Below are positions 56,580-60,938 of a stretch of 64,000 nt of DNA, piece by piece. The position numbers and the translations under genes are program-made. Location: positions 1,072-65,071 of the forward strand of contig JAZRSL010000038.1 in assembly GCA_045651505.1 (NCBI GenBank), given 5' to 3'. The stretch is from Candidatus Gastranaerophilaceae bacterium. GTDB taxonomy: Bacteria > Cyanobacteriota > Vampirovibrionia > Gastranaerophilales > Gastranaerophilaceae. Position 1 is the first letter of the stretch. Every line of letters starts with the position of its first letter. Below the pieces are notes generated by a model. The model did not search any database, was not told the origin of the DNA, and saw nothing but the letters and a program-made list of their open reading frames with translations.

Positions 56580-59500
56580 ATGCATAGTATGGACATTCAA
56601 GGTATTAATATAAGTTCAAAGCAAAGTAAACCTGTTCCATTATCAGGTAAAAATCTAGCAAAAGAAATAATAGTTTTTGCAGACAATCATAGTGCTGCGG
56701 TAACAGAAGAAACTTTTCGAAATAAGCTTTATAGAATGGATAAGCTTTCGGCAGAAGAATTAATCAAATTTATTAGAGCATTTGGTAAAGACGAATCAAT
56801 TATTGAATTAATTTGTGATGAAGTTGGTTGTAAAGGGGATACAATTAAAACTTTAGACGGTAAAGTGGAAGATATTAGAATATGGGCTTGTAAAAAAGTA
56901 ATGAAAGCATTAGTTAAACAAGCAAGAGAATTAAAAGTCGATGGTTTGATATGCTCTAAATTAGAAAATAAGTTCAATTCAGAGTTAAACATACAATTTA
57001 GAAAGATTGGATTTATTGATACTGTAAACCTTGATAGTATTATTAACACTATGGTTCAGCATATTGAAAACAGACTAAACCTTACTAAAGAAGACATAGA
57101 AAAAATTGAGAATACACCTATCTCAGAAGGTCAAAAGCAAGCTACTGAAATAACTGAAGCTCGTCTTGAACAAGCTTATGCATCTTTTGGTGAAAGAGTA
57201 GGTGAAGATGGTAAAATGACAACAAAAGATAAAGATGGAAATCTTTATAACGGTCAAATGCAAAAAGACGGTTGGGCTGCTGATTTTGCAGATGGTATTA
57301 GTAGAATTTGGGGTTCTGAGAACACTGCTGAAAAAGTGCGTGATGACTTAAAAAAAGCAGACGCTCAATTAAAGGAACTACAAAAAGCTAAAGAACAAGG
57401 TCCTGTTGCTTATGCAAATAAGTTTTATGAAATATACGGAGTAGAATATGAATACGCTAATATTGTAGCTTATCAAAAAGCTGAAGCTACATATATAAAT
57501 GCTAGTTCTAATCACGAATTTGAGATGGGATTTAATAGGAAGTTTAAGGCTTTGCTTTCCAAGGCTCCACTTAGAGAAGAATACGAACAATTTATTGTTG
57601 CTGGTGGGGGTCCTGGTTCAAGCGTAAGTGAAATATTAACAGCTACAAAAGAACAGGTTTTTGAACGTGAATTTAATAATTTAGCTGAATTATTAACTCA
57701 AAAAGACGCAAACGGCAATGAAATTAATGGAGTAGAAATACTTAATAATGCTTTTATAGAGAAAGGTGTTGCTAATGGAACAATTGAGCAAAAATATGAA
57801 GTAATGAAAGAGATTGCTCAACTTTTATCAAAACAACTACATACTGAAACATCTAGAGCAAGTGGTGGTAAATCATTATCACAACTTGAAGCAATATATG
57901 AAAACTCATATAAAGCAGCCTATGGTGTCGAAAACGATATTATGAAACGTGTTACTGACTATAATGTATCACAAGAAACTGGCGGTGCAGTTACTAAAAT
58001 GGGAGCTATACTTATAACAACTCTTGCGACGGCTGGTTTTGGTGGTGGATTAGTTGCAACTGCTACAGCTACTTCTATTGCAACAGTTGGTTATGAGGTA
58101 ATTGATAGAGGTACAAGTGGTAAAGCTTTAAATGCATTGAGAGAAGATGGCGTTGGAGCTTATATCAAAACTGCTAATGATGATATTAATTGGGAAGCTA
58201 CATTAAAACAAGCTGTTATATCAGGTGGTGCAGTCTTAATTGGTGGAGCTGTCGCTAAAGGCGTGAGTATAGTAATGGAAGGAGCTAAACCTGCTGCTCA
58301 AGCAATTGCTCAATTTGGAGGCGATATTGTTTGTGATGCTGGTATGGAATACCTAACTACTGGTAAAATCACTGTTGAAGGAATGGTCTTTACAGTTCTA
58401 TTATCAGCATCTGGTAATATTGTAGCTATGAAACAATTGAGTGCAGCTGCTGATGCAACAAAATCTGTTGATGAAGCAATTGAGGGGGCGGCAAGGACTA
58501 ATATTGCAACAGGGGCTGATAGTGATATAAGAACAAAACTTGAGTCATCTGAAGTGGGCTCAGGTGATGCTACGCCTAATAATAAAGTAGTTACTGAACT
58601 CCAAACTGTAACTCCAAAAACAGGGGCAACTGTTGAAGGAACTGTAACAGGATTATATTTACCAGATAGAAATATTGTTCAAAAAGCTTTAAGCAATACT
58701 ATTATTCCAAAAGAAACTTTATCTCTAATTCAGAGGTTAAAAGGCCGCCAATATGGGCATTTACAAACAGAATACAAAATCGTGTCTGATTTGGTTAATG
58801 ATATTGATTCAAGATTATCAAAATTTATCAATGCTGTTGATTTTGAAGAACGTTTGTCGCAAGGGAAAATAGTATTAGAAGAGATAAGAAACAGTAATAT
58901 GAGTGAAACAGAAAAACATATTTGGGAAACAGTACTTGCAGCTAAATTACTTCCTAAAACAGAAACTCATTTCCATTGTAAAGGTGCTACTTCTAAAGAA
59001 TTAATTGAAAAATTAATGAAAAAACATGGCGCAACACCAGAACAAATAGAAGATACCTTAAAAGTGTATAAGGAAGGTGAAGATGGTTTTGACAACCTTT
59101 CAGATTTTTGTGACGCATATGGACGAATTTCGCGTTGGGTAAGAGACGCAGACGACATTGCAGCAATGGTTGAAGATAACATCCGTGTCGCAGCTGAAAA
59201 TAACATTGGATATATTGAATTAAGAAATTCGATTATTGGCGTTCGCAATATGAATCCTGAAGAAGTTTTACAGGCAATGATTAAAGGTATTGAAAATGCT
59301 AAAGCAAAATATGGTGATAATATGCCTGTTACAACAATAACAGTCGGTGCATACAGAGGTATCCATCCGGATTCTTGCTACTATAGAAGCCATTTTGAAA
59401 ATCTAATTTCAGAAATTAAAGGTATTATTGACCCTCAAAAAGTAGAAAGCATTCTAAGCAACATAGATCAGCCTATCGAGATGTCCGTCTTAGATTTACT

Positions 59501-60497
59501 AGACGAACTTCAAAAAACCAAACACCCTGACTTTGATAAATTAATGACTGACTATAACAAGGTTGTCAACAGTAACGATAACTTAGGTAAGGTTAAAAAC
59601 GATATTCTTGAAACGCTCTCCAATGGCAATGAAGCTGAAAAAATACGAATTGATGAACAAATAAAAGAATACATCACTAAGGCTGACGGTAACGTTTCTA
59701 GAGCTTTAAAAACTTTTGCACAAGAACACCCAGAACTCAAAGACCTAAACATAGATGACCGTGTTAATAAACTTTGGGCATCAGCGTTAGATTGGACAAC
59801 AAAGGAACTTGAACAAACCATTGATGCTGTAATTGAATTAGCTCAAAAACCTGAGTATAAAGACATTCTAACAGGATTTGACTTGAATGGACCAGAAACT
59901 CATACAAATCCTGAAATATGGGAAAAACAATATCAAAAAATAATTGAATATAATAAAAGCCATCCGGATGACCCTATCGGTATAACAATTCACGCAGGCG
60001 AAACCTTTGATACTTCAAGTGCAGATGGAACTCAACAATTTGCAATTGAAGGATTAGTTGCTGCTGTTGAAAAATGTGGTGCGAACAGAATCGGACATGG
60101 ATTGCAATTAGCTGAATTTCCTGAATTTATAACATGGCTTAAAGAAAATCATCCTGACGTTACAATTGAAGCTAACCCAACTTGTAATGTTTTATCTATT
60201 ACACCTGGTTGTGAGCGTTTGGATATGCACCCAATTGACATATTAAACAAAAATGGCATCTCTACAACAATATGTTCAGATGACCCAGCAATATGTGCAA
60301 CAAACAGTAGCTTAGAAGCAGCTAAAGTCGCAATGATGAATTATTTTTCAAATGGTAATTTAACAGGAATTGAAGGTATAGCACAAAGCTCAATTAATGG
60401 TGTTAAAACAGGATTTATGCCTGAAGCTCTTAAAAGTGAAACTCAAAATAAATTTGAGAATCAAATTGCAAAAGTTATAGAATTATTTTATAATTAA
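56580..60497 (+). CDS. Giant (1305 aa) fusion protein with an N-terminal helical region, a Gly/Ala-rich hydrophobic core and a C-terminal adenosine/AMP-deaminase-family domain
   Basis: The C-terminal ~510 aa carry every ADA-family metal/catalytic motif: THFHCKG (H797/H799), YIELRNS, GFDLNGPE, ITIHAGE (1138-1141), RIGHG (H1173), IEANPTCN and TICSDDP (D1234/D1235). Residues ~470-620 are hydrophobic Gly/Ala-rich (GAILITTLATAGFGGGLVATATATSIATVGY...). No signal peptide. Confidence 0.85.
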   Translation: MHSMDIQGINISSKQSKPVPLSGKNLAKEIIVFADNHSAAVTEETFRNKLYRMDKLSAEELIKFIRAFGKDESIIELICDEVGCKGDTIKTLDGKVEDIRIWACKKVMKALVKQARELKVDGLICSKLENKFNSELNIQFRKIGFIDTVNLDSIINTMVQHIENRLNLTKEDIEKIENTPISEGQKQATEITEARLEQAYASFGERVGEDGKMTTKDKDGNLYNGQMQKDGWAADFADGISRIWGSENTAEKVRDDLKKADAQLKELQKAKEQGPVAYANKFYEIYGVEYEYANIVAYQKAEATYINASSNHEFEMGFNRKFKALLSKAPLREEYEQFIVAGGGPGSSVSEILTATKEQVFEREFNNLAELLTQKDANGNEINGVEILNNAFIEKGVANGTIEQKYEVMKEIAQLLSKQLHTETSRASGGKSLSQLEAIYENSYKAAYGVENDIMKRVTDYNVSQETGGAVTKMGAILITTLATAGFGGGLVATATATSIATVGYEVIDRGTSGKALNALREDGVGAYIKTANDDINWEATLKQAVISGGAVLIGGAVAKGVSIVMEGAKPAAQAIAQFGGDIVCDAGMEYLTTGKITVEGMVFTVLLSASGNIVAMKQLSAAADATKSVDEAIEGAARTNIATGADSDIRTKLESSEVGSGDATPNNKVVTELQTVTPKTGATVEGTVTGLYLPDRNIVQKALSNTIIPKETLSLIQRLKGRQYGHLQTEYKIVSDLVNDIDSRLSKFINAVDFEERLSQGKIVLEEIRNSNMSETEKHIWETVLAAKLLPKTETHFHCKGATSKELIEKLMKKHGATPEQIEDTLKVYKEGEDGFDNLSDFCDAYGRISRWVRDADDIAAMVEDNIRVAAENNIGYIELRNSIIGVRNMNPEEVLQAMIKGIENAKAKYGDNMPVTTITVGAYRGIHPDSCYYRSHFENLISEIKGIIDPQKVESILSNIDQPIEMSVLDLLDELQKTKHPDFDKLMTDYNKVVNSNDNLGKVKNDILETLSNGNEAEKIRIDEQIKEYITKADGNVSRALKTFAQEHPELKDLNIDDRVNKLWASALDWTTKELEQTIDAVIELAQKPEYKDILTGFDLNGPETHTNPEIWEKQYQKIIEYNKSHPDDPIGITIHAGETFDTSSADGTQQFAIEGLVAAVEKCGANRIGHGLQLAEFPEFITWLKENHPDVTIEANPTCNVLSITPGCERLDMHPIDILNKNGISTTICSDDPAICATNSSLEAAKVAMMNYFSNGNLTGIEGIAQSSINGVKTGFMPEALKSETQNKFENQIAKVIELFYN

Positions 60498-60512
60498 AAA
60501 GCGAGGTAATTA

Positions 60513-60938
60513 ATGAACAAAATAGTTACGTCATTATCACAAAATTTAACTAAAACAAATGGTGTAAAACAAATGCAAGATCCTATACTTTTAGCAAAGA
60601 TTAAAAACTATATCAGCAAAATTTGCAGTAGCGATATACATTTGTCTGCTCTTGAAGCAAAAGGAGCAATGGTTAATGCTAACGAAATATCTCGTGCTAT
60701 GGACGATTTAAGATATATTTTTGATAATGAAGGTACAGATATACTTCTAAAACTAACAAAAGAAAATCACCCTAACAGTCGTGAAATTCTAAAAGTAGGC
60801 GGAATGTTTCACTCTTATAACGGAAACAACAAAAAAGCAATCGAATTTTACACTGGTTTAGTTGAGTATTACAAACAATATGGAAGAATGGATAAAGCCG
60901 AAGAGTACATAAATATTATAAAAAGACTTAATCAATAA
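60513..60938 (+). CDS. Small helical (TPR-like) protein coupled to the deaminase gene; possible immunity/chaperone partner
   Basis: 141-aa ORF starting 15 nt after the deaminase stop, with a GCGAGGT RBS. The C-terminus KKAIEFYTGLVEYYKQYGRMDKAEEYINIIKRL is TPR-like. Confidence 0.6.
   Translation: MNKIVTSLSQNLTKTNGVKQMQDPILLAKIKNYISKICSSDIHLSALEAKGAMVNANEISRAMDDLRYIFDNEGTDILLKLTKENHPNSREILKVGGMFHSYNGNNKKAIEFYTGLVEYYKQYGRMDKAEEYINIIKRLNQ

Follow-up and report, generated by a model that had tools for sequence, protein, structure and literature searches.

What is an adenosine deaminase (ADA) doing at the end of a 1305-residue protein, and what is the small gene that follows it almost without a gap? 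The question is posed by a 64,000 nt stretch of DNA from a Candidatus Gastranaerophilaceae bacterium (contig JAZRSL010000038.1, positions 1,072 to 65,071 of the forward strand; this whole stretch is called the window below), in which an earlier note, made from the letters alone, had pointed out a 1305-residue open reading frame (ORF) followed after 15 nt by one of 141 residues; both ORFs and the gap are present. We call the two products the effector and its partner (Table 1). The answer we favour, backing it and doubting it in about equal measure, is that the effector is delivered into other cells, where its ADA tail would deaminate adenine nucleotides or nucleosides, and that the partner would neutralise that tail in the cell that makes it. 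What carries this answer is an N-terminal module of ~640 residues shared with several hundred proteins that differ in their tails, a near-identical recombination handle at the end of that module, an intact deaminase active site, and the co-conservation of tail and partner; delivery, substrate and immunity are what we infer from them.

The tail is a member of the adenosine/AMP deaminase superfamily. It scores 100.6 bits against the Pfam A_deaminase model (PF00962, cog1816; cut-off 27), and an AlphaFold model of residues 741-1305 (predicted local distance difference test score, pLDDT, 83; predicted template-modelling score, pTM, 0.78) contains all eight of the eight barrel strands. With this model Foldseek retrieves Plasmodium ADA, human ADAL, bacterial Add, adenine deaminase and Cad1 at probability 1.0, superposing at template-modelling (TM) scores of 0.78-0.87 normalised to the target. 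The motifs that the earlier note had read along the tail, THFHCKG (796-802), YIELRNS (878-884), GFDLNGPE (1099-1106), HAGE (1138-1141), RIGHG (1170-1174), IEANPTCN (1196-1203) and SDDP (1233-1236), are each found in place, and the zinc ligands and catalytic residues (H797, H799, H1138, E1141, H1173, D1234) occupy invariant columns of an alignment with 18 ADA relatives (A4). With its active site intact and its modelled barrel complete, the tail is predicted to be catalytically competent, as that note had proposed.

Judged by its scores, the tail is not an equivalog of Add: TIGR01430 gives 113 bits against an equivalog cut-off of 216.55, the PRK09358 sub-models all fall far under their cut-offs, and identity reaches at most 27% to Add in A4 and at most 31% to any protein found in a search of 5.8 billion. 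Add holds the ribose 5'-OH with an acidic residue that stands two positions beyond HxH (Asp19 in mouse ADA); this position in A4 is Asp or Glu in Add-like sequences, Gly in CARF-ADA and Lys801 here. A helical, acidic insertion of ~160 residues (model residues 190-348) is missing from all 18 ADA relatives in A4 and splits the alignment to PDB structures into two halves, and a search with it (930-1088) found no relative of its own. Because this insertion splits the barrel, the domain spans ~550 residues (~755-1305), so that the earlier note was right to call the C-terminus a deaminase and short in allowing it ~510. The domain is acidic as a whole (92 Asp+Glu vs 57 Lys+Arg). Its one PADLOC match is to the CARF_ADA model (75-79 bits), over model positions 397-601, which are the ADA part. 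Nearest to the tail among the relatives detected are P0029 and P0030, both of them free-standing enzymes with metabolic surroundings, one from a related Melainabacteria-like genome.

What precedes the tail is common property. In a word-indexed search with the full-length protein, 28 homologues match solely residues 4 to ~625/655 and differ at their C-termini, and an exhaustive profile search with the trimmed module alignment (A3; clusters at 50% identity) gave 503 cluster representatives of 135 to 4012 residues at E<=0.001, 199 of them reaching E<=1e-30. The earlier note had set before the deaminase an extension of ~790 residues that Add enzymes lack; Add does lack it, but the first ~640 residues are a shared family module, not an anchor private to this protein. 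Scanning one genome per GTDB species yielded 43 module loci, essentially all in metagenome-assembled genomes (MAGs) of Gastranaerophilales/Melainabacteria from guts and rumen, and the three that bear another label match Melainabacteria loci in synteny; where taxonomy is known, the family is confined to gut Gastranaerophilales/Melainabacteria. Family members are built as module plus tail (n=54), as module only (n=6, ~622 residues) or as N-terminal extension plus module plus tail (n=27), the extensions being ~540 residues long and carrying EF-hand/LysM domains. The tails include ADPrib_exo_Tox, Lipase_3/Mbeg1, Macro, HD, HATPase_c (GHKL ATPase), AvrB_AvrC, DnaJ, Peptidase_C2 (calpain-like), ABC1 kinase, GNAT and peptidase C39-like domains and, in a few paralogues only, RHS repeats. 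In a network of tail pieces, subsets of members have pieces in common, and 8 of 76 complete tails, the ADA tail among them, are singletons. Comparing the contexts of the homologues, as the earlier note had proposed, finds variable C-terminal domains on the paralogues and loci outside defence islands.

Four MAGs hold at least two copies, and the copies are in tandem in L010 and L012; both tandems (L010 712-7239, L012 9785-16542) pair a module-only gene with a module-plus-lipase gene, and from them one might suppose that tail-less and tail-bearing paralogues act together. Module-only paralogues also occur in a conserved housekeeping block beside FixC/FixX-like genes. The ADA-like P0030 (428 residues) stands directly upstream of a block of FixC, FixX and a 123-residue protein (L047 6001-9616; also L048 and L049) in a genome of 34% GC, and this block is 54-61% identical to that following module-only Gastranaerophilales paralogues; because the blocks that follow are alike, the same chromosomal slot holds either P0030 or a module-only paralogue.

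The end of the module marks the point of exchange. Residues 511-600 are 96-100% identical to P0001, P0002, P0003 and P0005 and 90-96% identical to P0013, against 40-80% in the rest of the module for the same paralogues, and sliding identity drops to ~20% past residue ~630-660. At the nucleotide level, the handle is 80-95% identical to loci L051 and L052, which lie elsewhere on chromosomes, vs 50-76% for other parts of the gene; synonymous sites are conserved too, which argues for gene conversion and not for protein-level constraint alone. The module is in fact a mosaic, with other near-identical blocks such as residues 451-510, shared with P0009. On these identities, handle and breakpoint are the signature of C-terminal cassette exchange as it is found in polymorphic toxins.

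The partner gene, translationally coupled to that of the effector, follows the tail across a gap of 15 nt, TAAAAAGCGAGGTAATTAATG, which includes a GAGG Shine-Dalgarno sequence. Among 5.8 billion proteins it has three entries, namely itself, a copy at 88% and a copy at 86% identity. A 1752-bp contig (L044) carries an orthologous locus, 84% identical, in which the final 159 codons of the ADA tail are joined to the partner by a 21-nt junction identical to that in the window, with the 178-residue gene behind it. Between the two loci dN/dS is 0.13 over those 159 tail codons, indicating purifying selection, 0.20 for the partner and 0.17 for the 178-residue gene. L044 is the sole other occurrence of the pair found, and there the downstream gene is conserved with the deaminase, a check that the earlier note had named. 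Both ADA tail and partner are absent from all 43 paralogous loci (tblastn); neither the 5.8-billion-protein search nor a scan of JGI metagenomes found copies beyond L044 and L045, and a search with the exact 21-nt junction returned one chance match, on the phage-like contig L050. L045 (1-919) holds the third partner copy (122 residues, 86% identical), where similarity to the window gives way after 341 nt to an unrelated gene; either the context there differs or this short contig is a chimera. The description of the partner as TPR-like survives only as a sub-threshold single motif at residues 84-121 (Pfam E 0.14; designed CTPR protein E 0.016). It is slightly net basic, a charge complementary to that of the acidic ADA domain. 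We regard it as a candidate immunity protein.

Within the module, a helical domain is followed by a Gly/Ala-rich hydrophobic core; behind the module comes a linker rich in Thr, Ser, Gly and Ala. The helical domain is 52-65% identical to 18 proteins and 31-40% identical to 9 more; its AlphaFold model (pLDDT mostly 75-93) is all-helical apart from two small hairpins, and its most conserved cores are residues 223-300 and 440-470. Ala makes up 18% and Gly 14% of residues 466-640, with hydrophobic segments at 475-505, 545-566 and 602-617 that are bounded by the invariant acidic residues E506, D509 and E590. The Kyte-Doolittle mean over 19 residues peaks at 1.68 in this region, which is borderline for a transmembrane segment. 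The hydrophobic strings to which the earlier note had drawn attention lie here, and its observation that a Sec signal is lacking was borne out, the N-terminus being hydrophilic as in all relatives. In the linker, pLDDT is below 50 over residues 640-700.

The module has no match in Pfam, NCBIfam, PADLOC or PHROGs, and comparison of the N-terminal region with known housekeeping families, a check the earlier note had suggested, likewise gave no family match in the libraries searched. Against PDB profiles (from alignments A2 and trimmed A3) it gave low-complexity matches or AhlC at E 0.099 and 0.36, which are not significant, and Foldseek of its AlphaFold model against PDB and BFVD gave no fold match (TM<=0.12; for BFVD E>=0.012 and TM<=0.11). 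Nor was it found on IMG/VR contigs. A phage tape-measure origin, considered for the Gly/Ala-rich helices, was rejected: there was no match in PHROGs, BFVD matches were poor, IMG/VR gave none and the context is not phage-like.

These features can be assembled into a mechanism. The N-terminal ~640 residues would be a common delivery module, in which a soluble helical domain precedes Gly/Ala-rich, moderately hydrophobic helices that would enter a membrane, taking the C-terminal cargo with them or anchoring it; E506, D509 and E590, at the ends of the hydrophobic segments, recall pH-triggered translocation domains. Cargo domains would be swapped by recombination at the near-identical handle where the module ends. 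In the recipient cell the ADA tail would deaminate an adenine compound, for which a 5'-phosphorylated nucleotide (ATP, dATP) is plausible because Lys801 replaces the Asp that binds the ribose 5'-OH, and the deamination would poison the nucleotide pool of the recipient much as RdrB and Cad1 poison that of infected cells from within. In the producer, the coupled 141-residue product would bind and neutralise the tail as an immunity protein. Stated at its fullest, with the module as a self-sufficient translocation device that dispenses with a dedicated secretion system, the effector as the first offensive toxin to kill or reprogramme recipient cells by converting ATP/dATP to ITP/dITP and the partner as a new class of ADA inhibitor, the scheme seems to us rather unlikely.

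As to known systems, the nearest in organisation are the polymorphic toxins (Rhs/YD, CdiA, LXG, MafB; Zhang, Aravind and co-workers), which like this family have a conserved N-terminus followed by variable C-terminal enzymatic domains, a sharp homology breakpoint after a conserved stretch usable for recombination, and several paralogues per genome. The two also share tail domains (ADP-ribosyltransferase, lipase, HD, RHS repeats) and, at this locus, a small taxonomically orphan gene directly downstream. They differ in that the family module is unrelated to the described trafficking domains, with no PAAR, VgrG, LXG, TPS, MuF or signal peptide, that none of the family genes has secretion genes linked to it, and that candidate immunity genes are not universal. 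Since a recognised trafficking domain is lacking and an immunity role of the partner is a prediction, we would for the present file the effector in no named polymorphic-toxin class. In the toxin literature searched, no TIM-barrel ADA toxin tail was found, the deaminase toxins described there having the unrelated cytidine deaminase (CDA) fold, and no description of a toxin family from Melainabacteria was found in the literature searched. The statement of the earlier note that the architecture is not a described one thus holds for the libraries and literature searched. For the module itself the likeness that we would draw, in architecture only, is to AB-type toxins (diphtheria toxin T domain, CNF1, PMT, large clostridial toxins) and to the ClyA/AhlC pore formers, which similarly combine a helical soluble part, Gly/Ala-rich hydrophobic helices flanked by conserved acidic residues and an enzymatic cargo; there is no significant similarity of sequence or fold, AhlC being the best PDB profile match at an E value (0.099) that is not significant.

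The cargo can be set beside three kinds of deaminase. RdrB of RADAR, the ATP/dATP deaminase of an anti-phage system that forms a free dodecameric shell (PMC9994260), has in common with the tail the ADA superfamily, the catalytic constellation, a large insertion splitting the core and a similar spacing from HxH to HAGE, as well as the deamination of adenine nucleotides as a plausible source of toxicity. Unlike RADAR, the locus has no adjacent RdrA and the tail no PADLOC RdrB match at E<=1, RdrB is missing from the 50 best Foldseek matches, the ADA domain here stands behind a 640-residue module instead of forming a free shell, and the context is not a defence island. Cad1/CAAD, the CARF-fused adenosine deaminase of type III CRISPR (PMC11645235, PMC12993439), is approached through the match to the CARF_ADA model, the structural match to Cad1 and a non-acidic residue in place of the ribose-binding Asp; the effector differs in having neither CARF nor CRISPR-cas genes among the neighbours scanned, in its 160-residue insertion, missing from Cad1-like enzymes, and in the residue itself, Lys here and Gly there. 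With canonical Add (TIGR01430/PRK09358) it shares the fold, the zinc ligands, the catalytic Glu and His and the SDD motif, and departs from it in Lys801, the 160-residue insertion, an extra loop after HAGE and the C-terminal position in a protein of 1305 residues.

Confidence in a delivered effector must be tempered by a series of observations that weigh against it. No marker of secretion or trafficking (signal peptide, PAAR, VgrG, LXG, TPS, MuF) was found in the effector or beside any paralogue; AlphaFold confidence in the hydrophobic core is below 50, so that membrane insertion is only a prediction; and the module stands without a relative among solved or viral structures. Around the family genes lie housekeeping functions (MnmE, ribosomal proteins, KARI, tRNA methyltransferases, FixCX), clustering the neighbourhoods of the 43 loci and running Pfam on recurrent neighbours returned housekeeping functions plus one 508-residue protein without assignment (c26), which is unrelated to the N-terminal extensions of the family, and the housekeeping synteny of the module-only paralogues means that the module may have an autonomous cellular role. 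On the side of immunity, a small same-strand ORF lies downstream at about half of the tail-bearing paralogues and none belongs to a known immunity family; L036 and L039 have homologous tail ends followed by unrelated ORFs; and the DnaJ, AvrB, calpain-like and EF-hand tails look directed at eukaryotes and would need no immunity protein. The substrate, finally, cannot be read from sequence: the phosphate contacts of CAAD come from several loops (PMC11645235, PMC12993439), and the assignments made for Cad1, CAAD and RADAR do not transfer by sequence alone.

Several of these points fit better with proteins that are host- or eukaryote-directed or extracellular, delivering enzymes into, or displaying them to, animal, protist or fungal cells. 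On this account, which we hold to be a real but distinctly lesser possibility, the ADA tail would remove adenosine (e.g. immunomodulatory adenosine) or adenine nucleotides, either within eukaryotic cells or outside them, and the 141-residue protein would serve as chaperone or adaptor, or be the product of a small gene with no relation to the tail. AvrB_AvrC, the DnaJ J-domain, Peptidase_C2, ABC1, EF-hands and ADPrib_exo_Tox are typical of effectors acting in eukaryotic cells, the genes are dispersed singly among housekeeping genes like Legionella-type effector repertoires, the lineage inhabits animal guts and rumen, no candidate immunity gene accompanies about half of the paralogues, and the tail is matched best, in sequence and in structure, by ADA/ADAL enzymes of eukaryotic parasites and animals. 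Against such a destination, the partner is tightly coupled to the ADA tail, strictly co-occurs with it and is under purifying selection, all as expected of immunity proteins; with Lys801 in place of the 5'-OH-binding Asp, plain adenosine is a less likely substrate, and Lipase_3, RHS and LysM are equally typical of antibacterial toxins. The earlier note had itself left two alternatives, a toxin with an immunity or chaperone partner and a membrane-anchored defence effector. The shared module, the toxin-type tails and the handle strengthen the former, and the missing RdrA-like ATPase, CARF and cas genes weaken the latter. In a cell-autonomous anti-phage (abortive-infection) system the module would be a membrane sensor or scaffold, the ADA domain would convert ATP/dATP to ITP/dITP on infection and the partner would be a regulator or antitoxin. 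The tail does match CARF_ADA at the level of the domain, its core-splitting insertion and HxH-to-HAGE spacing of ~340 residues are as described for RdrB (PMC9994260), constant modules with variable effector domains occur in defence families too, and the absence of an export signal from the effector and its relatives would be natural. We nevertheless consider this improbable, with no defence gene of any kind nearby and no PADLOC hit beside the gene, no match to the RdrB models and RdrB outside the 50 best structural matches, paralogues that stand singly among ribosomal and tRNA-modification genes and not in defence islands, RHS, AvrB, DnaJ and ADPrib_exo_Tox tails and LysM-bearing N-extensions that are atypical of defence effectors, and a module not found on IMG/VR contigs or in PHROGs. 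Least credible of all, to the point that we give it hardly any weight, is a membrane-tethered housekeeping enzyme of purine salvage, in which an Add-type deaminase became fused by chance to a membrane protein peculiar to the lineage: purifying selection does act on the tail and its active site is intact, module-only paralogues do keep housekeeping synteny and the nearest relatives of the tail (P0029, P0030) stand alone in metabolic surroundings, but the fusion occurs in one genome and one close relative only despite 503 family clusters, the tail scores far under every Add equivalog cut-off, has a unique 160-residue insertion and no ribose-binding Asp, and sits at the swappable-tail position behind the handle.

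Table 1. Features of the effector locus, in coordinates of the window
Feature	Residues	Coordinates	Strand	Basis or remark
Effector gene	1305 aa	56580..60497	+	ORF
Helical domain of module	~20-470	56637..57989	+	AlphaFold, homologue identity
Gly/Ala-rich hydrophobic core	~471-640	57990..58499	+	Composition, hydropathy, invariant columns
Recombination handle	511-630	58110..58469	+	Directly upstream of tail breakpoint
Thr/Ser/Gly/Ala-rich linker	~641-755	58500..58844	+	Paralogue homology stops inside at ~aa 650
ADA-superfamily (beta/alpha)8 domain	~756-1305	58845..60494	+	Pfam, alignment A4, AlphaFold, Foldseek
Zinc-ligand HxH motif	H797/H799	58968-58976	+	
Lysine two residues after HxH	K801	58980-58982	+	
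Helical acidic insertion (~160 aa)	~930-1088	59367..59843	+	Between barrel strands 3 and 4
HAGE motif	1138-1141	59991-60002	+	
RIGHG motif, His	H1173	60096-60098	+	
SDDP motif, Asp pair	D1234/D1235	60279-60284	+	
Partner gene	141 aa	60513..60938	+	ORF; candidate neutraliser/immunity protein of ADA tail
178-aa gene, no assigned function	178 aa	61032..61568	+	Co-conserved in L044; possible third operon gene (membership uncertain)

The effector probably starts at the ATG at 56589 (Met4) rather than at 56580, because all 28 homologues in the alignment begin at the residue that matches Met4. The gene has as neighbours in the window a LuxR-type response regulator, a PAS histidine kinase, a rubrerythrin and small genes without assigned function. 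The only terminator-like hairpin on the + strand (61721-61746, 11-bp stem) comes after the 178-residue gene, and effector, partner and this third gene therefore possibly form an operon; together with a second strong hairpin at 61922-61963 (a perfect 19-bp stem with T-tracts) it probably provides the terminators that bound the three-gene cluster. In a promoter scan, the number of sites was not above that in shuffled sequence. In the 178-residue protein, motifs rich in His and Asp (WFHDFDK, SSHH, DWECAR) recall HD-type hydrolases, but it has no match in Pfam, NCBIfam, PHROGs, PADLOC or PDB. A putative short ORF, ~48 codons long and provided with a good ribosome-binding site (~56226-56372, - strand), occupies the 440-nt gap 5' of the effector gene.

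Further upstream, a tRNA-Lys(CTT) gene lies at 52105-52179, 4.4 kb from the effector gene, and the same tRNA-Lys (98.7% over 75 nt, L051 3-77) lies ~1 kb upstream of the paralogue P0005 at a different locus; the family genes may sit in variable regions beside tRNA-Lys. Directly after the tRNA in the window is a 299-residue ORF (52256-53155) with an HExxH motif (LVHEMTHIF), and close to it one of 193 residues (51337-51918), neither with a family match in Pfam, NCBIfam or PADLOC. FliK-like and FlgE-like flagellar hook genes at 47547-49434 indicate that the source organism is a flagellated member of the Gastranaerophilales, and flagellar type III export of the signal-less family proteins is conceivable. 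Downstream of the cluster, the - strand at 62308-63997 carries ORFs of 112 and 108 residues and a partial ORF that runs off the end of the window, without family matches except a negligible one to REase_II (E 0.002) for the 108-residue ORF; this AT-rich region (26% GC) may be accessory DNA.

Gastranaerophilales are common in human and animal guts and remain uncultured, and to our knowledge almost nothing is known of how they interact with neighbours or hosts. What appears new at this locus, on sequence comparison, is an undescribed candidate delivery module joined to an unprecedented class of cargo within the architecture of a polymorphic effector. Having no relative in Pfam, PDB or phage libraries, the module may be a new device for protein delivery or membrane insertion. 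Deamination of the adenine-nucleotide pool (ATP/dATP to ITP/dITP) is known to us so far only from the self-directed defence of RADAR and Cad1; if the delivered-effector reading is true, the ADA cargo would extend it from phage defence to delivered effectors, and the orphan partner would become a candidate for a protein that inhibits an enzyme of the ADA family. The several hundred modular proteins of the family would then be the first recognisable interaction arsenal of the Gastranaerophilales.

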